Origin: Ignisphaera sp.
Lineage (GTDB): Archaea; Thermoproteota; Thermoprotei_A; Sulfolobales; Ignisphaeraceae
Length of the DNA: 11,129 nucleotides
NCBI GenBank assembly: GCA_038821645.1
Contig: JAWBDT010000027.1
Location: 1-11,129, forward strand
Direction: 5' to 3'
Positions 1 through 11,129 of this stretch are shown one piece after another (the stretch's first letter is position 1; each line of letters opens with the position of its first letter). Position numbers and translations under genes: made by a program. The notes under the pieces were generated by a model. That model saw only the letters and a program-made list of their open reading frames with translations. It was not told the origin of the DNA and did no database searches.

Positions 1-154
1 CCATAGACCAACTAGAATCTATAGCAATACTATAGAGAGAAATAGTTGAAGCAAACTTTTCGCTACATCTAAACCTAATGAGAAACGGCACATCTTCACT
101 CTTACCCTCAACTATGAATCGTTTACCTAATCTCGATTCAACAGATATAGGCAT
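1..154 (-). CDS. vWA (MIDAS) domain protein, N-terminal 51 codons; runs off the left edge
   Basis: Hand translation from ATG at 154: MPISVESRLGKRFIVEGKSEDVPFLIRFRCSEKFASTISLYSIAIDSSWSM, open to the edge. It ends in a hydrophobic strand plus DxSxS (IAIDSSWSM), the vWA MIDAS motif. GGTG lies 5 nt and TTTATTA about 30 nt upstream. Confidence 0.7.
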   Translation of the reverse strand, partial: MPISVESRLGKRFIVEGKSEDVPFLIRFRCSEKFASTISLYSIAIDSSWSM

Positions 155-588
155 ATATGCACCAATAACACTTGTACTCAGAAGACTAATAAATATGTCA
201 TAAATAGTATGAAGTAATTTAATACATTAGCTAAAATATGGATTTTTTTTTTGAATACTCTTATTCAGTAGGTTATTAATTATAACGTCCTTGAGAGTTG
301 CATTAATAAATATTATAGATCTACGTCCAATAGTACTTAACAACTCTTTGATGTAGCTTCTTCTTATTACTTTGTAACTACTACTAAAGCTCTGAGGTCG
401 CCAAAGAAAGATATATTGATTATTCACATCATCAGGATAATTAAAAATTGTTGCTGGGTCTTAGGACTGATAAGTTCTTTAAGAAATATAGTTACAACGT
501 GGATCTAGTGAAGTAATGCTATTCTATTCTGCTATCTTTTCATATTTATTTATGTGTTTATTTAACTATATTTTGTTCTCTATCTATA

Positions 589-1428
589 TTATTTTCCTAA
601 AGAGAGTTGTTCTATGCTTAGTGTATTTCTGAACCATACATCTATTTGTGGAAACGGTATCTCTATACCTGCATCACTTAATGCTTTCTTCATTTTCCAT
701 AACAGATCCTTCATAGTGTCGTAAGCTACTTGTGGTGGTGTCCAAACTCTTACTGTTATTGCTACACCGCTTTGTTCAAGATTTGATACAAAGATATCTG
801 GAGCTGGATTTACAAGCACATATGGATGTTCATCTAACACATTCTTTATTACTCGATACGCTTTTTCAGCATCTTCTTTGTACGATATCGAGAGCTTGAA
901 CTCTATTCTTCTAGCTACAGCTTTGCTAAAATTCTTCGTAATACCGCTAATTATTTGTGTATTAGCTACACTGATGATGATGCCATCAAAAGTTCTTATA
1001 CGTGTAAAGATAGGAGATACTTCTGTTACTTCACCTGCATTATTTGCTACTTCAACAATTTCACCAACGCTTATCGTCTTTTCAATCATTAGATAGAGTC
1101 CTGCAAAGAGGTTCGATAAAAGTGGTTGAAGAGCTACACCAATGACTATACCCGCAAAACCTCCAGCTAATACAAATCCTGTAACATCTATACCGATAGC
1201 TCCAAGAGCTACTACAACAACTGTAAACAGTAACACATAGTATATAGCTCTACTCACATTAGACGCTATAGCCTTTGATGTTCTAGCTGAAAGAAATTTT
1301 AAGAATGTTCTTCTGACTATGATACTAATCGCTATTCCAACAACTATTATAGACACAAATACGATAACCCTGTATATAGCTTCATTATTCAAAAGCGATA
1401 TATTCTCGATAATGTCTCTTAAACTCAT
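589..1428 (-). CDS. mscS: Small-conductance mechanosensitive channel (MscS family)
   Basis: Three N-terminal hydrophobic helices, Gly/Ala-rich TM3 (LAGGFAGIVIGVALQPLLSNLFAG), beta domain (GEIVEV..GEVTEVS..TRIRTFDG), C-terminal GIEIPFPQIDV. Start placed at ATG 1428 (TGATG overlap with the upstream stop, GTGGGG upstream) rather than GTG 1440. Confidence 0.93.
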   Translation of the reverse strand: MSLRDIIENISLLNNEAIYRVIVFVSIIVVGIAISIIVRRTFLKFLSARTSKAIASNVSRAIYYVLLFTVVVVALGAIGIDVTGFVLAGGFAGIVIGVALQPLLSNLFAGLYLMIEKTISVGEIVEVANNAGEVTEVSPIFTRIRTFDGIIISVANTQIISGITKNFSKAVARRIEFKLSISYKEDAEKAYRVIKNVLDEHPYVLVNPAPDIFVSNLEQSGVAITVRVWTPPQVAYDTMKDLLWKMKKALSDAGIEIPFPQIDVWFRNTLSIEQLSLGK

Positions 1429-2150
1429 CAATATCCCCACAACATATCGCTTCTAAAACTAATTAAAGGCGATTTAACTTCTTCTGGTTCATCTATAGCT
1501 CTATACCCAGATTCGATAGGTTCTTTCTCATATTCTACAACAGCTGTTGAAGAGCTGTTGATAGTTACTATAATGCGTTGAGTACAACATCTCCAGCTAC
1601 CGTATTTATAGAATATGTATAGGGGTGAGGAATCTAGAAGAAGTTTAGATAAGATAGCAAATCTATCTAATTTATTCCTTACCTCTAGATGTGATAAACA
1701 AAAACCTAGATCTATCTCTCTAGGTTTCTCTAAAAAAACATCTGTTTTACAGTACCTAGCGATAAGCCCACTCATATCTCCATATCTAGATGGTGGACCA
1801 TAGAGGGTGTATTTATATAAATTGTGAAGGGGAATTATATCTATAATTACGAAAGAGCTACCACTATAGCTATAGACAGCTGCATCGATCGGTAAATAGA
1901 AGTAGAGAGATAGACTATCCATTGGCGGGACATAGATAGGTCTATTGAATTCACATAAGATATACTTTGTGATAAATCTTGGGTAATAGACGGGATACAT
2001 AGGTAATAACTTTAATACACCTTTTGTTATCACCTCTTTCTCGACTACATCATCTCTATACCTTCTATACAACACATTATCTCCTAAAACATCAACATAA
2101 ACTCTATACATACCCACAATAACAGATGTCTCTATCTCTCTTCCAAACAT
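1428..2150 (-). CDS. DUF432 family protein
   Basis: 240-aa ORF with motifs I recognise as DUF432-like (P..P..IT.YIL.EF..PI.VPP, PIDAAV, KYTLYG...G.IARY); 1-nt overlap with mscS. Confidence 0.75.
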   Translation of the reverse strand: MFGREIETSVIVGMYRVYVDVLGDNVLYRRYRDDVVEKEVITKGVLKLLPMYPVYYPRFITKYILCEFNRPIYVPPMDSLSLYFYLPIDAAVYSYSGSSFVIIDIIPLHNLYKYTLYGPPSRYGDMSGLIARYCKTDVFLEKPREIDLGFCLSHLEVRNKLDRFAILSKLLLDSSPLYIFYKYGSWRCCTQRIIVTINSSSTAVVEYEKEPIESGYRAIDEPEEVKSPLISFRSDMLWGY

Positions 2151-2181
2151 CTATAGACCACTAAGAACCTCAAAGCTACAC

Positions 2182-2189
2182 TTATTAAA
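2182..2189 (-). promoter_or_regulatory. Candidate archaeal TATA box (TTTAATAA) for DUF432-mscS
   Basis: TATA-like octamer 31 nt upstream of ATG 2150; the AT-rich background weakens it. Confidence 0.45.
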
Positions 2190-2330
2190 AAATGGTTAAC
2201 ATCAATAAATTTGCCTAAGGTTTGCGATAACAGTGCAATTTAATTAACATCATGTATTTCGTAAAGAGGCGCTAAACATTCTTTCATAACATTACTCACT
2301 GTACAAGAATTTAAATAGACTTTGATTAAG

Positions 2331-3086
2331 CTAGTAGCTTAGGGTTTCTAGGTATTCTGTTTTATCAGGTATTCCAGCTTCTTTAAACGCTTTTCTTCTA
2401 TTGATACAGCTTTCACATGTACCACAATGTTTTTCAAGTCCTTTATAGCAACTCCATGTTCTATAAACAAGATCGCCTACCGTATTGTAACACATTTTCA
2501 AGAGTTCACTCTTCTTTAGCATGGCTATACTTGGTGTCCATACCTCGATACCTCTCCTATCTCTGAAGTGGCATATCTTTAGCGCTGATTCTATTGAAAG
2601 AAAACATTCTGGTGAACAATCAGGGTACATTGGCTCGCCCGTATCTTTTCGTGGCTCTACATCGCTGTACTGGCTACCTAAAACCACTACAGCTTTATCA
2701 CATACACCTTGCTCCAGCAATGTATAGGCATAAGCTGTAGCTATTGTAAGCATAACGATATTCCTAATCGGTACAACTACTGTTCTCTCATATTCCTTCT
2801 TTATATCTACAGTTTCATCTACTAATTGAGTACCTTTCCAAAGTTTCTTCATAAACGATATATCTAGAACCAATAAATCTATAACCCTTCCCCATTTCCT
2901 CTCTACAGCAACACTATTCAATTCACTAACAATTCCTTTTACAGTTTCTAGCTCCTTTCTAGAAGCCTTGTGACCATAATCAAAAAATACAACAGATGCA
3001 TCATAACCTTTACTAAGCCAATAAACTAATGAACACATGCTATCTACTCCCCCACTAACTAAAGCAACAACTCTTGTTTTAACCAC
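2331..3086 (-). CDS. queC: 7-cyano-7-deazaguanine (preQ0) synthase QueC
   Basis: PP-loop SGGVDS, FDYG, VPIRN, YPDC and Zn-binding TWSCY-x5-HCGTCESC; GTG start preceded by GAGGTGGTGA SD. Confidence 0.95.
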   Translation of the reverse strand: MVKTRVVALVSGGVDSMCSLVYWLSKGYDASVVFFDYGHKASRKELETVKGIVSELNSVAVERKWGRVIDLLVLDISFMKKLWKGTQLVDETVDIKKEYERTVVVPIRNIVMLTIATAYAYTLLEQGVCDKAVVVLGSQYSDVEPRKDTGEPMYPDCSPECFLSIESALKICHFRDRRGIEVWTPSIAMLKKSELLKMCYNTVGDLVYRTWSCYKGLEKHCGTCESCINRRKAFKEAGIPDKTEYLETLSY

Positions 3087-3161
3087 ATATCACCACCTCA
3101 TCTGTTTGGAGATTTTTAGTGAACATAAAGATACAAATATTTAGTGATTTAAATAAACTCT

Positions 3162-3785
3162 TTACCTTATTCCTATGATTTTATGAAGCTGGGGCAATAC
3201 TCTATATGGAAGGTTATGTTTAAGTACATACTCAACAAGTTCTGTATAGCTTATTGTGTAACTATTTGGCTGTACAGATAATCTATCTAATGGAACATGC
3301 CTCGATACATATTTTATCAACTCATGAAAATCTTTCTCAGGATCCGTGATCACGAACTTAATCCATAGTCTATCTATAGGTATTTTACCCAACTTCATAC
3401 CCAGATAATCTGGATTAAACGATGGTAGCTTTGGTGATGCTACAATTAGATCAACCATTTCTTTAACTATATCAGAAGGCTCCACAGATGCATTGGTCTC
3501 TATCGCTACTCTAAATCCAAGTCTCTTTAATTCAATTACTAACTTATCGAGCTCCGATAATTGCAGTAGAGGTTCTCCACCAGTTATTGTAACCCATCTA
3601 GCTCTAGATTCTATAGCTTCTTTCACGATACTATCTATACTCATCTCTTCTCCATCATTCCATGCATACTTGGTATCACAATACCTGCAACGTAAATTGC
3701 AGCCCGAAAGCCTTATAAAAAAGCATGGAACACCTATTAGCACACCCTCGCCTTGGATAGACTTGAACATCTCTACTATCCTTAT
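3162..3785 (-). CDS. queE: 7-carboxy-7-deazaguanine synthase QueE (radical SAM); start likely ATA 3785, first ATG at 3770
   Basis: SIQGEG, FIRLSGCNLRCRYCDT (CxxxCxxC), TGGEPLLQ, IETN, SPK, QP, PQLHK. The in-frame upstream codons read I-R-I-V-E, and GAGGTG (3794-3799) sits 8 nt before the ATA. Confidence 0.93.
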   Translation of the reverse strand: MRIVEMFKSIQGEGVLIGVPCFFIRLSGCNLRCRYCDTKYAWNDGEEMSIDSIVKEAIESRARWVTITGGEPLLQLSELDKLVIELKRLGFRVAIETNASVEPSDIVKEMVDLIVASPKLPSFNPDYLGMKLGKIPIDRLWIKFVITDPEKDFHELIKYVSRHVPLDRLSVQPNSYTISYTELVEYVLKHNLPYRVLPQLHKIIGIR

Positions 3786-4156
3786 GGATACCCCACCTCA
3801 ATCCAACTAGTTGGAGACTCATAAATTCTAACCTTTATACCTAGGAACGTGATTCCAAGAGCTTTTAATGATGTACAGATACGTTCAAGTATATATGTGG
3901 CTATAAGCTCAGAGGTCACATTTTTATCTCTAAATACTTCATTGAGATAGGTGTGATCCAATACTTCAATTGCATCTCTAGCAATTTTCTTAAGCAAAAT
4001 AATGTCTATAACCATATTCATTTCACTCAATGAATTTGATTCAACTTCAACATCAACTATATAGGTATGTCCATGTAGATTTCTACAAGGTCCCTGATGA
4101 TTTTCTATTCTATGAGCAGCTGAAAAGTATTCTCTAACACCAACTCTATATCTCAT
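3782..4156 (-). CDS. queD: 6-carboxy-5,6,7,8-tetrahydropterin synthase QueD (PTPS family)
   Basis: FSAAH, CRNLHGHTY, LDHTYLNE, TSELIA, YESPTS motifs; ATG 4156 (or TTG 4159) with GAGGT upstream; adjacent to queE and queC. Confidence 0.93.
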   Translation of the reverse strand: MRYRVGVREYFSAAHRIENHQGPCRNLHGHTYIVDVEVESNSLSEMNMVIDIILLKKIARDAIEVLDHTYLNEVFRDKNVTSELIATYILERICTSLKALGITFLGIKVRIYESPTSWIEVGYP

Positions 4157-4783
4157 CAACCACTACCTCATAGATGTTTTATCTATTAACAAATTTTATG
4201 GATCAGATATTATATTCATGTCTTCAATATTTCCAATACTAATCATATGTATCCCTAAACCTAGAGAAATATCATAAAATTTCGATGACAAATCAACAAA
4301 CATAAGATAGTGCATCAATCATAGACTCTACACTCTTAATAAACTTGGTGCATAGTATCTAGACAAAATAGTTAACTAGAGACTAAAGTGATTATAGCTA
4401 GAACTTTATTCATTCTTCATACAATATTATTTATCGAGTTACAGATAGTGATGATAATCTTATGCTTACCTCTGTAATATTTTAACCTTAAAATCTATCT
4501 TGACATATTGCTATATTTGATTTACTTTATCTAGTTAGCTTTCTTCTTTTTCAGCAACATTTTTATTTCAGATAAAAGTCTAGTGAAAGGGGTATGTAGA
4601 GGATAATAGTATTCTACTCAATATAGAGCTATGTTAGAGTAATATGTAGATCTCAAGTCTGAAGTATAGCTACATCTGGTAATCAATATCTCTATTAATT
4701 ATAAATCGTGATTTAAATTATTTATTGCAATAGATTATGAGAAGATAGATACAAGCTCATATATATTTTCATATAAGATGTAT

Positions 4784-4789
4784 AAAAAA
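4784..4789 (-). terminator. Oligo-T archaeal terminator candidate for the glycoside hydrolase gene
   Basis: T6 run on the - strand 25 nt after the stop codon. Confidence 0.35.
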
Positions 4790-4814
4790 TGAATGAGTTA
4801 ATAGGTTCATAATG

Positions 4815-7800
4815 TTACCAAAGCACTCTTATTGGTGGTGCTGATAACCCTTCTATATCTGTTGTTTTTGTATCACTACTTATTGTTATACCTATGTATA
4901 GTTGTTGATTTGGTGAAGCTGTTAGCTTCGGTATTATTATTGGATTGCTATTGGCTTCCTCTAGATGTGCTACACCGTTATATGTTACATTTGTCCATCC
5001 GCTGCCCCATAAAGTCGCCTTAAGTTCAGATTTAATTGATGAGAGATCTATTCTGAAACTACTACCAGTTATCACAGCATTTTCAACTACTTTTTGATTA
5101 TTAACATATATAGCTGAGACACCTACTTCAGACATAGAGGCCCAACCATCTCTAGGTATCACTATTCTGCCTCCAACACTATTGAACTCTATCTTAACAA
5201 TATCTCCTTCTGCTACATTTATGGTACCTTTATTTGTTGTTATCTGACCACCATACCCAACTTTAAATTCCATATATCCTGATAGATTAGCAGGTCTAGC
5301 GGCATTGATCTTCACAGGACAAACATCTCCACTACAGCTTCCCAGTACAACTTCTTGTGGCTGATATTCTCCGATAATTTGTACTGGTAGATATAGTCCT
5401 TTTGATAACCAGTAGTTTCTTATACTCCATTTCAGATATACCCATGGAACCTTGATACCGCCAAACTCTGTTCCAAGCTCTGATACAGTAAAGTATAGGT
5501 TCTCCCAACCACTTAGATAGGTATATCTTCCCGCAATCTTCACAAAATCATTCCAACACCATGCTAAGTATCTTCCAGACGCCCTTGGCACAGTTATTCT
5601 AAATGCAAAATACTCCCAACCCATATTTCCATGCCAAACCTCAAATCTCTGATTAACCTTTAACTGATCAACATATATCGTTATAGGCACTACATCAGCT
5701 ACGTCACCAGCACCCTGAAGTCCATGGTAAGAGAACCACACCATAAGCTCCACTTCATTATCGTTTACACCTCTACCTCTGCTAGTATCTCTCATTAGCC
5801 ATGTCTCAAATGCAAAATTATACAGAATCCTCTTATCAGTATGTGTTATGGAGTAACTATCTACATAAACACATAGCTTCACATTATCATTAACTAAATC
5901 ACGTACTCTTATAGGCAAATCAACACGCTCATTAGTAATAAACCCTTCAGGAGCAGGTCCATAATCATTCCAAGGCTTTCCACCAACCCAAATCTCTGGA
6001 TACCCATGCACCCAACCACCAGTACCTGAATAATTAACATCTATTACTACATCCAATTGATAGTCCTTAGGTCCATAAACTTTAGCAACAAGCTGAACAT
6101 TACCTCGAGTAATTCCAGGACAATTCCATAAATTACCCTCTAATACAAATTCACATACACCATTACCATCAGTATCCAAACATGCCCATGGAAACACATT
6201 ATTACTATCAGCAATCAAAGTGACAACAGTTCTAGTAGTTGTTGGTGTAGGGGTAGTAGTTGGTGTAGTTATAACAGTTGTTGTTGGTGTAGGGGTAGGT
6301 GTGGTTCTAGGTGTTGTAGGCGTTGTTACAACAGTAGTTGTAATAGGAGTAGTAGTTGTTATTGTTATTGTTCTGATTATTGTTACTGGTACTGTTGTTG
6401 TATGTGTAACTGGCACAATAGTTGTTATAGGTGATGTAACTGTAAATGTTACAGTAACTGTTACAGGAACATTAACAACAGTCGATAGAGTAACAGGAAC
6501 AACAGTAACAGTAGTTGTTGGTGTTGGTATTGGTGTAGGAGTAGGCGTTGCCATTGTTACTTCGTACCATAATGTTTGATATGAGCTACCTATGGATATG
6601 ACTTGGTTTCCTCCCGATGTAGTTACAGATACCGGTGATTTCCTCTTACCTGTGTTGTCTAGCGCATATGCTGTTGCTCTATTGCTTGTTTTAATAGTTA
6701 TTGTTGCCTCTATTCCTTCGGTAATTGTTGGTGCTCTGCCCATATCTCTATATGTTGTCAGTTTTAGTCCGTGAAGGTTTGGTACTGATGCTAGATCTGT
6801 TGTGGCTGTAAATAGTAGTTGTTTATTATCGTAATTGTAGATCTTTGTCTCTGTATTAGTTGTTAATCCTACTGCTACTATCAGTACTCTTTTAGCGTCT
6901 CTAAAGCTCGATCCATCTAATACATGTATAGCTATTGTTGCCCAACCATTTAGTAGCGTATTCTTAACCTCTATGGCAATTTCCCCTAGGTCGAATCTTT
7001 TACCACCAATAAATCCTGTCAGAACTTTGCTTCTAGATGTATTAACTATGAACACGCATCTACCAGATTCTCTGCAATCCCATATTAATTCACCAGTATC
7101 GCTAACATACAGAGGTTGACTAGGTGCGGGAACATCTCTTGGTAGTAATGTATTTGGTGGTCTAGAGCGATTTGATGGTACAACTACTACACCGTGGAGT
7201 AGTGCTGTATGTGCAGGATTGCCGGCCATTCTACCATTTGGAAGATTCCATACGCCAGCTGTTCTAGACCTGATAAACTCTATTTCTTGATCTCTAGAAA
7301 GTTCAACAGCAACCCATTGCCTAGCTACCTGGACGTCGCCTCTGACAAACAACATATGTGCTGTAATCATCATAGCCCATCTTTGGGGATCTTGACCGAA
7401 ATCTAGTGTAGCCATGATACGTCTCGTATCGAAATTCCATCCATAATCTGGGTCTCCATAACAGTAAGGTAGTATTCCATCCCAGTCATGGAATGCTCCA
7501 TAAGCTGACAGGAATACCCATCCTTCTGCTCTATACATGTTTGGAAATGGATGATTGTATTCGCTTATAGTATGAGGTTTACCAGCTATTTTTTGATTAG
7601 CCATTCCAACAATTGTACTTGATGTGGGATTATTCACCATAGCGGTATTCAGTACATAGTAATCACCAGACCAGAAGTCGCCAGCAGGATAGTTCCAGTA
7701 TCCATGTGAATCAGCTAAATCCATATGTTGCATGATGTTGGGTGTCCCTCCCCATGTCATCTGCGTACCTATTACAAGTGCTTTTACTTTTAGTTCATTC

Positions 7801-8810
7801 TTTAGATAGTTGTACATATCTCTAAAGTAGTCGTAGTCTAGATACCACAGGAATTGTGCCCAATCTCTTTGTGCTGCTGTAGGTCTGTTACTGTATTCAC
7901 TTAGTGTAAAAATCTTTACAGTTCCTGCTTCAAGATTCTCATCACTGTATAAACTTCCCCACGCATTCCTTAAGTTTGTTGTTGAACCATATTTCTGTCT
8001 CAAATACTCATTCCATTTTTTCTGAAGCTCAGATTTAAACACGTCTGGAAGTCTGTCTACTGCTCCATCAAACCATCCAAATACCATACCGTACTCATTT
8101 AAGATCTCTATAAACGCTATGGCAGGATCTTCAGCATAGGATAGCCCTGTGTATGGATTTACATGGGTTAGTAGTTTTCTTGCGAACTCCTTTTGAAGAT
8201 CTCTAACAGGTTTGTAGAAGAAACCTAGAATGTGCTTATCCTTGATATTCATTGAATCTACTTCTCTCGGTAGACCATCTGATGACGAAAAGCTTCTGTA
8301 ACAAAGCAGATTGATATTCACATAGATACCGTTCTCTTTAAGTTTAGCAACTAGGTAGTCAAGCCTATCAAGTCTTGTTGGATCAAGTTCCCTTGTACCA
8401 GGAGCTCTAAATATGTTATCTGAAGTCCAGTGAGCATCTAGTGCATGTAATCTAACAAGATTTATGCCATATTTAGCGAATCTTTTAGCTAAAGCTTCTG
8501 CTACACTTTGTGGAGCAAATATTGCTGGAGATACAAGATTTATGCCTAAAAACCTTATCCTTTGGCTTCCTACGTATAGATGTCCATCGCTCCCCACATA
8601 GACGTGTCCATACTTACCAGCCGGTTTATGTAGATAAACAGACAGATCTATTGAGGTAGCTTCACCGTCATTCCATGGAAAGTAGAACTGAAATAGAGTC
8701 TGCTGACTATTTGCTGATACAGGTCGACTTAAGTATGGTAGTACTATCGAAACAGTTAAAATACATAAAATGGCTATCGATAATACATGTACTGATCTTC
8801 CTACCTTCAT
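4815..8810 (-). CDS. Secreted multidomain glycoside hydrolase: clan GH-A (GH5-like) module + Thr/Pro/Val linker + GH12 endoglucanase + C-terminal domain of unknown function
   Basis: Signal peptide aa1-33 (ending VSA). GH-A motifs GINLVRLH, EILNE239, DSHGYW, TISE417YN. Linker aa753-864. GH12 motifs NLWN, GYPEIWVGGKPWN, NFAFETWL, E1021LMVW, ELGTE1115FG, as in Pyrococcus EglA-type Cel12. Confidence 0.9.
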   Translation of the reverse strand: MKVGRSVHVLSIAILCILTVSIVLPYLSRPVSANSQQTLFQFYFPWNDGEATSIDLSVYLHKPAGKYGHVYVGSDGHLYVGSQRIRFLGINLVSPAIFAPQSVAEALAKRFAKYGINLVRLHALDAHWTSDNIFRAPGTRELDPTRLDRLDYLVAKLKENGIYVNINLLCYRSFSSSDGLPREVDSMNIKDKHILGFFYKPVRDLQKEFARKLLTHVNPYTGLSYAEDPAIAFIEILNEYGMVFGWFDGAVDRLPDVFKSELQKKWNEYLRQKYGSTTNLRNAWGSLYSDENLEAGTVKIFTLSEYSNRPTAAQRDWAQFLWYLDYDYFRDMYNYLKNELKVKALVIGTQMTWGGTPNIMQHMDLADSHGYWNYPAGDFWSGDYYVLNTAMVNNPTSSTIVGMANQKIAGKPHTISEYNHPFPNMYRAEGWVFLSAYGAFHDWDGILPYCYGDPDYGWNFDTRRIMATLDFGQDPQRWAMMITAHMLFVRGDVQVARQWVAVELSRDQEIEFIRSRTAGVWNLPNGRMAGNPAHTALLHGVVVVPSNRSRPPNTLLPRDVPAPSQPLYVSDTGELIWDCRESGRCVFIVNTSRSKVLTGFIGGKRFDLGEIAIEVKNTLLNGWATIAIHVLDGSSFRDAKRVLIVAVGLTTNTETKIYNYDNKQLLFTATTDLASVPNLHGLKLTTYRDMGRAPTITEGIEATITIKTSNRATAYALDNTGKRKSPVSVTTSGGNQVISIGSSYQTLWYEVTMATPTPTPIPTPTTTVTVVPVTLSTVVNVPVTVTVTFTVTSPITTIVPVTHTTTVPVTIIRTITITTTTPITTTVVTTPTTPRTTPTPTPTTTVITTPTTTPTPTTTRTVVTLIADSNNVFPWACLDTDGNGVCEFVLEGNLWNCPGITRGNVQLVAKVYGPKDYQLDVVIDVNYSGTGGWVHGYPEIWVGGKPWNDYGPAPEGFITNERVDLPIRVRDLVNDNVKLCVYVDSYSITHTDKRILYNFAFETWLMRDTSRGRGVNDNEVELMVWFSYHGLQGAGDVADVVPITIYVDQLKVNQRFEVWHGNMGWEYFAFRITVPRASGRYLAWCWNDFVKIAGRYTYLSGWENLYFTVSELGTEFGGIKVPWVYLKWSIRNYWLSKGLYLPVQIIGEYQPQEVVLGSCSGDVCPVKINAARPANLSGYMEFKVGYGGQITTNKGTINVAEGDIVKIEFNSVGGRIVIPRDGWASMSEVGVSAIYVNNQKVVENAVITGSSFRIDLSSIKSELKATLWGSGWTNVTYNGVAHLEEANSNPIIIPKLTASPNQQLYIGITISSDTKTTDIEGLSAPPIRVLW
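6219..6554 (-). repeat. Low-complexity Thr/Pro/Val linker within the hydrolase gene
   Basis: TPTPTP, TVTVT and TTTP runs; explains the Val/Gly-rich antisense ORF 6220..6579. Confidence 0.9.
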
Positions 8811-8852
8811 AAAGCCATCCCCTGTCTATACGTAGTAGTGTATTGCCCAGAA

Positions 8853-8859
8853 TTTTAAA
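8853..8859 (-). promoter_or_regulatory. Candidate TATA box (TTTAAAA) for the hydrolase gene
   Basis: 42 nt upstream of ATG 8810, with a purine-rich AGGGGATG SD-like stretch before the start. Confidence 0.4.
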
Positions 8860-9336
8860 CATTTATTAATATATTTATTGGGTATGTTTATACTTAATTA
8901 ATTTAAAAACCACAAAATAGTTTTATTACATCTCTTAATGTATTAATTAAGGATGAGGGTTCACAGTACGAAACATTAAATAATCCATTATGATCAGAAT
9001 CAAGTTATTTTGTAGAGAAATAATCTTTCATCAAATTCTGTCAGAATTGATGTCATATATCTCTTTGTAGGGAACATATAGAGTTCTGGACCACAGTATT
9101 ATAGTTATCATTTCTGCTTTACTATTCAGATGACCTACTTTCATAGATTTCTATAGATTTCCACTACCTATATACCGTATTAAGTCATACTTATATCAAT
9201 GTCGTAGCCCCTTTCTATTCAAATAATGTATAAGAATTACCAACTTTGATAATACTATCCACTTTTGCACGTCTGATTATTATCACGCAATACACCTTAA
9301 AAAGTCGCTTAAATGAGTTGAGTTCATTCAATTGGT

Positions 9337-9385
9337 TGGTGCCGCAGCCGGGATTTGAACCCAGGTCACGGGCTCGAAAGGCCTG
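9337..9385 (-). other. 3' half of tRNA-Glu(TTC); probable att site at the end of an integrated element
   Basis: - strand CAGGC-CTTTCGA-GCCCG TGAC CTGGG-TTCAAAT-CCCGG CTGCGGC A CCA: anticodon arm, T arm, acceptor 3' strand and CCA. No D arm or acceptor 5' strand upstream; 61 nt downstream of the integrase stop. Confidence 0.88.
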
Positions 9386-9446
9386 TTCATATCTATATTA
9401 ATTTGCACGGTCTATGTATATCGTATGTAATATCTAGTTGCAGGTG

Positions 9447-10712
9447 TCAAATACTCTCTGATAATATTTCCTTTAGCTTCTCTAAGTACTTTGGGTAGTA
9501 TTTGTCTGCTTCTGATAGGAGGTTTTCGTACCTTGCCTCACTTACCTTTAGTTCTCCGAATCTACTTTGGATGAATCTTGTTACTTCTCGAGACATTACC
9601 TGGATCATTGTTCTCCACGCCGCTTTCCTCATGGTTTTTGGGGGTAGTAGTCCGTGTTTTTTGCATAGTGTGTGACTGATGATCTGTTTACCTTTTTGTT
9701 CTCTGTATTAGTTTGGCTGTTTCTTTTGAGATGTATATCCATTCGCATGGTTTGCTGATCTCCTTTAAACCTAGGTAGTATCTGCAGAAGCCTTTGTCTT
9801 CGAAGCATACAAGCCTTTTCGTCTCTATCCCTAAGGGTTCTACTGCGATGATCTCTTCGGGTCTTCAGTTCTGCACCATCTCCATGGTATGCACGAGTCT
9901 AGCTTCGCTCTCGAGCATAGCTCTGTAGAGCGCGTAATATGTTGGGTGGTTCTGCTTGAGGTATGCGAGGATCTTCTTAATCTACTCGTGCTCTATTGGG
10001 TAGGGCCTTATGTCGAGTTTATACCTTCTACCTGGAACCACGAGAACTATCCACGCGTAGGTCTCTGGCGGTATCCTTCTCCTGAACATGAGGTACTGTG
10101 CATAGTGCCTAAAGATGTTCCTGACCCAGCCGAGGGGGTGTGCTCTGCGATCTGGTACACAAGCTCTTCCGAGAGTTCTCTACCCTGCAGATACCTCTCG
10201 AAGTATGATCTGTACTTCCTAATCATCTCCTCCGTTCTAACCTTGCGGAACCTCTTACTCTCTCTAAGAAACCTCTCAAAATCTTCACTCCACTCGAGCT
10301 TTACGCCTACGAAACCCACACCCAGTAGCTTCCTCAAATCCTCTCTATAGATATCCACAACACACCTCAGAACAATGTTTCTGAGGTACTCATCTCTAAG
10401 CATATACCTAACGAGCTCTAGTGCTGCAGAATAATCCACAGAACCGTCTTCTCTAACTATACCAGCTAGCTTGAGCCTTTCACCAGCTGATACAACTCTG
10501 TTGAACTCTTCAGATGTTGTGTGCTGAAGTATCTTTATGAGTAGTGAATCTGATACAAGTATCTTTCTATTCCTAACCCTGCTAAACGTCGAATACGAGA
10601 TAGAGAGATCAGATGATTTGAGCTTCTTAACGCTTACAATGTATTCGAACAACTTGTAGCGAGCATCATCAATCTTAGATATATCGAGATCCTTGAACCA
10701 CAAACCACACAC
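9447..10712 (-). pseudogene. Crenarchaeal tyrosine recombinase/integrase with N-terminal HTH, disrupted
   Basis: ORFs 10047..10712 and 9447..9632 join through other frames: ...IAEH/PLGWVRNIFRHYAQYL..RPYPIEHE*IKK..LYRAMLESEARLVH..QN*RPEE..RLVCFEDKGFCRYYLG..KPCEWIYISKE../VNRSSVTHYAK/HGLLPPKTMRKAAW..FIQSRFG..VSEARYENL. Frameshifts near 10140, 9691 and 9660; stops at 9982-9984 and 9865-9867. Confidence 0.88.
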
Positions 10713-10958
10713 TCATGTCATCAGCGATTTATCGAGTCTAGCTTTATAGTATCTTCTATCAATGTATATGATCTTTGCTAGCTCGAGTCCTCTTAAGATC
10801 TCTACCAGTTTTTCTTCATCGATATCTTTTCCGTATCTTTCTTTAATGATCCTGGCAACAACTTTTGGCAACGTCTCTTTGCCAGGATCTATACGTATAT
10901 ATGGTGAACTTCTTAGTGCCTGGTCTACGAATATTTCTAGAGAGTCTCTGGAAAGCAC
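10713..10958 (-). CDS. Small hypothetical protein, winged-helix-like
   Basis: 81 aa, GTG start; amphipathic helices (KVVARIIKERYG, DEEKLVEILRGLELAK) followed by a beta-hairpin-like IIYIDRRYYKARL; its stop directly abuts the integrase start. Confidence 0.6.
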   Translation of the reverse strand: MLSRDSLEIFVDQALRSSPYIRIDPGKETLPKVVARIIKERYGKDIDEEKLVEILRGLELAKIIYIDRRYYKARLDKSLMT

Positions 10959-11129
10959 TTTAGATTAGTTTAATTATCTCAATGATTATGGTAGCTATAG
11001 TCAGCTATTTTTTATCAAGCTATGGTTAATACTCTCTACATTATTAGTTTCAATAATTCTGTTACGGATCCACATTATCCTACATTACACCGAGGATACG
11101 GAAAACTAGATAACTAAAGAAGATGGCGA

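Follow-up and report, generated by a model that had tools for sequence, protein, structure and literature searches.

The stretch of DNA analysed here (the window) is a whole contig of 11,129 nt, C27, from an Ignisphaera genome (G000; 1.57 Mb in 31 contigs, 97.8% complete), and the best-matching proteins of the window bear the name Ignisphaera. A single long gene on its minus strand, at positions 4815–8810, is best explained as encoding a secreted bifunctional beta-glucanase of this hyperthermophile, in which a predicted catalytic module of glycoside hydrolase family 148 (GH148) is joined to one of family 12 (GH12) and followed by a terminal all-beta domain, a reading that we hold at a probability of about 0.65. 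The positions of its parts are collected in Table 1.

The open reading frame (ORF) was confirmed as genuine, with the Glu pairs of both modules intact, since E239 stands in ILNEYG, E417 in ISEYN, E1021 in NEVELMVW and E1115 in GTEFG. From the N- to the C-terminus, it encodes a stretch that reads as a Sec signal peptide, a clan GH-A barrel with beta domains, a linker of 113 aa, a GH12 domain of the EglA type and an all-beta tail of 190 aa. An earlier reading of this DNA, made without database searches (the sequence-only reading), had described one secreted chain with the pairs E239/E417 and E1021/E1115 intact, a linker of ~110 aa and a GH-A barrel in frame with a GH12 domain. This description was borne out, as all four Glu are conserved in the expected motifs, the linker occupies residues ~753–865, the barrel was recovered with AlphaFold2 and Foldseek and the GH12 profile reached 44.5 bits. 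Its list of modules was right as to the two catalysts, while the C-terminal tail domain and the risk that the linker poses to the assembly had been overlooked.

In the mechanism proposed, a GH148 retaining endo-glucanase, with E239 as acid/base and E417 as nucleophile, would be tethered, through a flexible and probably glycosylated linker rich in Thr, Pro and Val, to a retaining endo-glucanase of the EglA type of GH12, with E1021 as nucleophile and E1115 as acid/base, and the terminal all-beta domain would most likely hold the enzyme to polysaccharide or to the cell surface. As in the Thermococcus enzyme MDG, both catalysts would work next to each other from one chain, on beta-1,4 and mixed beta-1,3/1,4 glucans, and here possibly in synergy. 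As far as the available portions of the reports go, beta-glucan, lichenan and carboxymethylcellulose (CMC) are cut by the characterised relatives EngU, Fsa04715Cel, EglA and the GH12 domains of MDG (PMC5725463, PMC11535203, PMC12265866, PMC4853606). The sequence-only reading had proposed a hyperthermostable beta-glucan/glucomannan-degrading enzyme; beta-glucan is a likely substrate, the characterised GH148 members being glucanases, whereas glucomannan found no direct support, since the GH5 mannanase folds resembling the barrel are only 12–15% identical.

The two catalytic modules and the tail

Residues 1–760 matched 707 proteins at E ≤ 0.001 in a word-index search. Among the 120 matches listed, Igag_0510 of Ignisphaera aggregans was 60% identical (E 0.0) over 95% of the query, and many others were CenC/CBM4 proteins of ~900 aa from Thermoproteota, Fervidibacter and other bacteria. 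Igag_0510 is a named GH148 member with a short segment inserted between strand 4 and helix 4 that does not resemble the carbohydrate-binding module CBM4 (PMC5725463, available part). The N-terminal module is therefore assigned to GH148 by way of Igag_0510, and not by way of the EngU sequence, rather than left as an orphan. The sequence-only reading had likened it to a poorly classified GH5-like family that may include the archaeal cellulase EBI-244; given its close kinship with Igag_0510, the module is not poorly classified. The GH5 profile PF00150 scored 17.9 bits, under its cut-off of 23.5, and over residues 100–168 only. The GH42 profile PF02449 scored 22.6 bits against a cut-off of 21, with a local match only (residues 211–394, profile positions 109–282 of 376). 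This local GH42 likeness accounts for the NCBI name of the close relatives, "beta-galactosidase"; in the part of PMC5725463 that is available, EngU is described with the same local likeness and without galactosidase activity. The same source reports that, in this founding member of GH148, replacement of E239 (INNEN) or E581 (VTEYN) by Ala abolished activity, and that the enzyme acts on CMC and works best on barley beta-glucan and lichenin. Additionally, Fsa04715Cel of Fervidibacter sacchari, filed as GH148+CBM4+GH148, is a thermostable endo-beta-glucanase (PMC11535203). The module in the window is thus predicted to be a retaining endo-glucanase of a family whose characterised members, EngU among them, are thermostable endo-beta-glucanases.

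A family alignment of 30 sequences was built from the window and 29 proteins hand-picked among the 120 listed matches, with both insert types included. N238/E239 and E417 were invariant in all 30, as were the GH-A signature residues. The AlphaFold2 model built on this alignment (pLDDT 93.4) places E239 four residues past the fourth barrel strand (231–235) and E417 inside the seventh (413–419), the strands being numbered by manual count from the DSSP list, and the positions expected by the sequence-only reading, at strands 4 and 7, were thereby recovered in the model. A helical insert at residues ~242–340 is of the short non-CBM4 type found in Igag_0510, while other members carry a CBM4 there. 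In Foldseek searches, the model matched GH5 mannanase, GH42 and GH35 barrels at probability 1.0 and only 12–15% identity, and no closer solved structure was among the matches listed.

The GH12 module exceeded the Pfam cut-off for PF01670 (44.5 bits versus 27). Pyrococcus furiosus EglA (3vgi) aligned with residues 845–1135 at E 3e-42, and the second GH12 domain of Thermococcus MDG (GH12-2, 7s8k) aligned at E 3.9e-41. A beta-jelly-roll fold would follow from the alignment to 3vgi. In EglA, E197 is the nucleophile and E290 the proton donor, and a calcium site is formed by D68, D70, D72, N74, E76 and D142, according to the available part of PMC4853606. The mutated columns of the EglA Ala-mutant entries 3wxp and 3wr0 fall on E1021 and E1115, respectively.

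In G013, a sister species assembled in 9 contigs, an 88.9-kb contig carries an orthologue of 1365 aa in which the modules follow one another in the same order. G013 is collinear with window positions 1–9383 and carries the same downstream genes (QueD, QueE, QueC, DUF432 and MscS). The proteins flanking the gene are only 86–91% identical between the two genomes, which indicates that the two data sets differ. Substitution ratios (nonsynonymous to synonymous, dN/dS) between G000 and G013, calculated with our own Nei–Gojobori script, are low in every module (Table 1), and therefore both catalysts and the tail have been kept by selection; the signal peptide is the fastest-changing part (pN 0.14 over 34 codons).

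It is very improbable that, in a true fusion, one of the modules is not a working hydrolase, having been kept, for example, as a glycan-binding or structural part. Such a loss would agree with the calcium site of the GH12 module, which is only partly kept: DTDGNG replaces the DKDGDG (DxDxDG) of EglA and an Asn stands opposite D142, by manual count on the alignment. This is also a point against the bifunctional reading; however, the site does not define the family, and GH12-1 of MDG also lacks it (PMC4853606, available part). The lower activity of full-length MDG compared with its separate GH12 domains, reported in the available part of PMC12265866, would likewise be consistent with an inactive module. 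On the other hand, all four catalytic Glu are retained, the GH-A signature is invariant throughout the family alignment, and the barrel and the GH12 domain have dN/dS values of 0.035 and 0.11, respectively.

The terminal domain matched no Pfam or NCBIfam entry. Its AlphaFold2 model was confident and all-beta (pLDDT 88.9), and it found no convincing solved relative, the best Foldseek match in the PDB having E 5.6e-3. A VIA-align comparison with 48,161 chains gave a best Z of 4.1, with CBM40 and CBM66 rows at Z 3.0–3.6 amid unrelated folds, and the ESM Atlas gave no usable match. A full library scan with residues 870–1331 yielded 93 proteins at E ≤ 0.001, ~18 of which matched the tail only. Tail homologues were aligned alone, because a joint alignment of GH12 and tail had set them under the GH12 domain. 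Those aligned (P0158–P0212) are mostly proteins of 150–260 aa, in which a hydrophobic signal at the N-terminus precedes the domain and many of which end in a hydrophobic anchor; in the small archaeal proteins with such an anchor, it stands after an EVPE-like motif. P0140 consists of GH12, linker and tail. In the genome of the window itself, the tail recurs at the end of a GH12–GH12 protein on contig C29 and in a 393-aa protein (C5:7329–8510), which by our reading starts like an archaeal pilin-type signal (RRGLS followed by a hydrophobic run). Since the tail occurs in GH12 enzymes as well as in anchored surface proteins, our best guess is that it serves for binding or anchoring, on polysaccharide or on the cell surface. 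A recurrent domain with a confident model and no known fold is a candidate for a new module of this kind.

The linker and the assembled joint

Residues 750–870 contain 54 Thr, 21 Val and 19 Pro, and a linker motif of ~50 aa also stands ahead of GH12 domains on contigs C29 and C30 of the same genome. Since this repeat is common to other genes of the genome, the single chain depends on the path that the assembler took, and several observations weigh against a fused protein. The joint lies within the repeat, where positions 6364–6490 match the initial 127 nt of C29 letter for letter; C29 then runs on into a different GH12 domain. Six more contig-end pairs in the genome overlap by exactly 127 nt, indicating a graph assembly with k=127; the window contig is therefore one path through a vertex where the graph branches, and the other exit of that vertex leads to another GH12. 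The same 127-nt overlap exists between the gene in G013 and contig C9 of that genome, and therefore both assemblies are open to one common bias.

Logan contigs from four hot-spring runs (four studies: X1, X3, X5 and X10) were compared with the window. All four break at 6385–6495, where the 31-letter words of these assemblies could not bridge the repeat, so that the breaks count neither for nor against the joint. Depth differed between the side of the GH12 domain with its flank and the GH148 side in three of the runs, being 31 versus 15.5 in X1, 192.8 versus 50.5 in X3 and 50.5 versus 31.6 in X5. In X10, it was equal across the linker (30.9 versus 30.5), and in this run 56 differences from the window lie on the GH148 side, compared with 5 on the GH12 side. 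The uneven depth and the X10 differences may reflect strain mosaics. As a separate observation, the GH148-side contig stops near position 9344 in X1, X3 and X5.

Protein collections also contain other continuations. P0002, from another metagenome-assembled genome (MAG) and 97% identical over residues 1–750, has the same linker motif followed by a domain resembling the C29 type of tail (tail'), with no GH12, while in P0122 a GH12 and tail 97% identical to those of the window are flanked by unrelated sequence on either side. P0002 stops after the first 26 residues of its tail'-like domain, at a contig end within repeated sequence, and its continuation is therefore no safer than that of the window. 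The complete fused protein was not found in a collection of 5.8 billion proteins; in the word-index searches, residues 870–1331 scored none of the proteins of 732–2330 aa, and the tail, among proteins of 337–2000 aa, matched P0122 only. A search of JGI metagenome contigs with the junction peptide gave no relative, since all 594 pattern matches were rejected by tblastn.

These data bear on two further explanations. In one of them, which we consider rather unlikely, the gene is an assembly chimera, in which a GH148 part and a GH12-tail part from different genes or strains, sharing a common linker repeat, were joined in both MAGs; the true genes could then be GH148-linker-tail', as in P0002, and another N-terminal part with linker, GH12 and tail. 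The exact 127-nt overlap between a contig end and the interior of the window, the many other end overlaps of that length, the similar situation in G013, the uneven depth in three of four runs with no contig bridging the linker, the other continuations in two other assemblies and the linker motif ahead of GH12 on C29 and C30 all favour it. However, the same path, bordered by unique sequence on either side, was obtained from the data of two different species, ordinary read pairs can span a repeat of ~130–165 nt, the depth in X10 is equal on both sides and the continuation of P0002 is itself unsafe. Moreover, in both assemblies the vertex is entered, as far as assembled, from the GH148 side only, and each of its two assembled exits leads to a GH12 domain; whichever exit is taken, the order GH148-linker-GH12 would hold.

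In the other explanation, which is possible and still falls short of probable, linker repeats act as recombination sites and the fused form coexists with others (GH148-tail', and GH12-tail elsewhere), the window being one allele among strains. This would account for the different continuations in closely related assemblies, for depth ratios that range from 1:1 to ~4:1 among runs and for the contrast of 5 and 56 differences in X10. It would also fit the synonymous divergence (dS) of the gene: between 4815–8810 and its counterpart in G013 (L021 6973–11070), dS is 0.08–0.14 and the proteins are 96–98% identical, whereas five neighbouring genes have dS of 0.21–0.50, that is, the glycosidase gene is two to five times below its neighbours, as would fit a recent exchange of the gene between the two species. 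Nevertheless, assembly error and mixed species in metagenomes could give the same signals. The GH148 genes of four more distant Ignisphaera genomes (G003, G010, G011 and G012) have no Que genes within ~5 kb and offer no support either way for the joint.

Taking both sets of observations together, we regard the GH148–GH12 fusion as probably real. If the joint is true, the protein would be the first known case of GH148 in fusion with another catalyst, and it would give hyperthermophilic archaea a second kind of multi-catalytic glucanase, next to Thermococcus MDG. It would also be a candidate for the breakdown of beta-glucan and cellulose at high temperature, and a natural test of whether the tethering of two endo-glucanases helps at ~90 °C. 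In any case, Thr/Pro linker repeats that are common to paralogues break or mis-join short-read assemblies precisely where domain architecture is decided.

A wider and doubtful idea is that Ignisphaera holds a kit of glucanase parts, in which the linker, identical over 127 nt, serves as a recombination joint for the shuffling of GH148, GH12 types and the tail, the latter being a new fold that binds enzymes to the substrate or to anchored surface proteins. The 127-nt identity does hold between genes with widely diverged catalytic domains, and the observed products would, on the same doubtful footing, be GH148-GH12-tail, GH12-GH12-tail', tail'-GH12 and a still-open X-GH12. Such a kit, if true, would be a simple archaeal counterpart of cohesin–dockerin display.

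Occurrence of the architecture and related enzymes

The combination of GH148 and GH12 was found only in the genome of the window and in its sister. Within the family, 8 of 26 genomes have a GH148 match, and a frame of more than 1300 aa occurs only in G000 and G013. Across a 301-genome sample of the class, the GH12-tail query matched in 25 (E ≤ 1e-10), at full length only in the same two, and large GH12-bearing frames of 1123–1715 aa are present in four other genomes (G031, G193, G286 and G010). The search for the same architecture elsewhere that the sequence-only reading had suggested thus returned one sister genome and no other among the genomes and collections searched.

The genome of the window has 7 GH12 matches above the Pfam cut-off, including a GH12-GH12-tail' protein (897 aa), a tail'-linker-GH12 protein cut by a contig end (653 aa when complete, in G013) and two simple anchored forms. 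The first of these is a second two-catalyst enzyme (C29:4071–6764; L004/L007), with a signal peptide, GH12, Pro/Thr linker, GH12, Pro/Thr linker and tail'; the Glu motifs are visible by eye in both GH12 copies, and its counterpart in G013 lies on C9 (L023 1–2313). In addition, a Pfam analysis of 16 long matches identified P0124 as GH5-GH114-GH12-CBM2 (1646 aa) and P0135 as GH5-GH12-GH114. In these two proteins and in that of C29, GH12 is tied by Pro/Thr linkers to further catalytic modules, as in the window, but none has GH148. At the start of a G013 contig (C1:1–1431; L022), a gene for a GH5-like cellulase, followed by tandem Pro/Thr linker sequence, is truncated by the contig edge and may be another multi-module enzyme broken by assembly. 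As a candidate for the partner that the second GH12 lacks, it was rejected, since the genome of the window has only a stand-alone paralogue (58% identical, on C2).

Multi-catalytic archaeal enzymes with GH12 are already known. The sequence-only reading had taken the characterised GH12 enzymes of archaea to be single-catalyst proteins, a premise overturned by MDG, and the genome of the window also encodes a GH12-GH12-tail protein. As described in the available portions of PMC4853606 and PMC12265866, MDG of Thermococcus sp. 2319x1 is composed of GH5-GH12-GH12-CBM2-CBM2, with all three catalytic domains active, and an origin in Ignisphaera is stated for its GH12-1 (PMC12265866). Like the protein of the window, MDG is secreted by an archaeal hyperthermophile and consists of an N-terminal clan GH-A barrel, followed by EglA-like GH12 and terminal non-catalytic modules. 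However, its barrel belongs to GH5 and not to GH148, it has two GH12 domains and CBM2 in place of the tail, and it is euryarchaeal rather than crenarchaeal. Those portions of the two MDG papers contain no description of a GH148–GH12 combination, and literature on GH148, on Ignisphaera GH12 or on both in archaea, mostly screened without full text, yielded no description of GH148 joined to GH12. The GH148-GH12-tail chain is therefore probably a new combination of known modules.

As regards the single modules, EngU and Fsa04715Cel share with the window the NE after strand 4, the [ST]EYN in strand 7, the strand-4 insert and the C-terminal beta domains, but they have a CBM4 inside the barrel and a single catalytic module, whereas the protein of the window has a short insert and a GH12 behind. 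Igag_0510 and a paralogue from the same genome as the window (C24, 836 aa) are 57–60% identical over the whole GH148 module. Both have an N-terminal membrane anchor and a Thr-rich stalk and end after the beta domains, in contrast to the window, where the signal peptide appears cleavable from its sequence and a Thr-rich stretch leads on to GH12. EglA, in turn, is a single domain with a full calcium site, of which the GH12 of the window shares both catalytic Glu and part of the calcium site. The cellulase EBI-244 (AEB53062 / F6M085; Graham et al.), which comes from an enrichment dominated by Ignisphaera and has been variously filed in reviews and tables as an unclassified GH5, as GH5-like with three unknown domains or as a family of a "new GH-A clan", resembles the protein of the window by description only, as an Ignisphaera-related, extracellular, multidomain enzyme with a divergent GH-A barrel; its name is absent among the 120 listed matches to residues 1–760, most of which are unnamed.

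Feature positions and genomic surroundings

Table 1. Features of the glycosidase gene and its immediate flanks, in window positions, with the basis of each.
Feature	Positions	Strand	Basis
Whole gene	4815..8810	minus	single ORF, ATG start, 1331 codons + TAA; 1365-aa orthologue in G013
Predicted signal peptide, residues 1–34	8709..8810	minus	K2/R5, hydrophobic run, VSA|NS; read from translation
GH148 (beta/alpha)8 barrel, residues ~35–500	7311..8708	minus	Igag_0510 60% identity; AlphaFold2; Foldseek
E239 codon, predicted acid/base	8094..8096	minus	NE motif just past barrel strand 4
E417 codon, predicted nucleophile	7560..7562	minus	ISEYN within barrel strand 7
Beta-sandwich region, C-terminal in GH148 module, residues ~501–752	6555..7310	minus	all-beta model; family-wide conservation; dN/dS 0.17
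Thr/Pro/Val-rich linker, residues ~753–865	6216..6554	minus	composition; tandem repeats; length differs between G000 and G013
127-nt repeat, branching point of assembly graph	6364..6490	minus	identical to first 127 nt of C29 of the same genome
GH12 catalytic domain, EglA type, residues ~866–1140	5391..6215	minus	PF01670; EglA 3vgi; 7s8k; dN/dS 0.11
E1021 codon, predicted nucleophile (EglA E197)	5748..5750	minus	aligned to 3vgi and E-to-A entry 3wxp
E1115 codon, predicted acid/base (EglA E290)	5466..5468	minus	aligned to 3vgi and E-to-A entry 3wr0
All-beta tail domain without family match, residues 1141–1331	4818..5390	minus	AlphaFold2; homologues
TTTAAAA box	8853..8859	minus	43–49 nt upstream of ATG; sequence reading
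T6 run	4784..4789	minus	~25 nt past stop; sequence reading
dN/dS by region			GH148 barrel 0.035; GH148 beta region 0.17; linker 0.25; GH12 0.11; tail 0.14

The TTTAAAA box ahead of the gene is a possible archaeal TATA element and the T6 run behind it a possible archaeal terminator. Downstream of the gene, window positions 589–4159 encode MscS, DUF432, QueC, a radical-SAM QueE-like protein and a QueD of the 6-pyruvoyl-tetrahydropterin-synthase type. These neighbours form a 7-deazaguanine (queuosine/archaeosine-type) cluster, which is unrelated to glycan use, and the glycosidase gene therefore lies outside any sugar-use cluster.

Rfam and tRNA scans of the window gave no match. On its minus strand, positions 9337–9383 hold the 3' part only of a tRNA (T arm, acceptor and CCA), and at the matching place G013 has an intact tRNA-Glu(UUC), its homology to the window ending at 9383. 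The sequence beyond 9383 has a higher GC content (0.42–0.46), ORFs without family and a 61-aa ORF that resembles an integrase C-terminus (phrog_5127, E 9.7e-5), and its last 195 nt are 97% similar to contig C8 of the same genome. Judged by these features, positions 9337–11129 look like the border of an element that has inserted into tRNA-Glu. Past the tRNA-Glu, G013 carries a reverse gyrase gene, and that of the genome of the window is cut at the end of contig C11.

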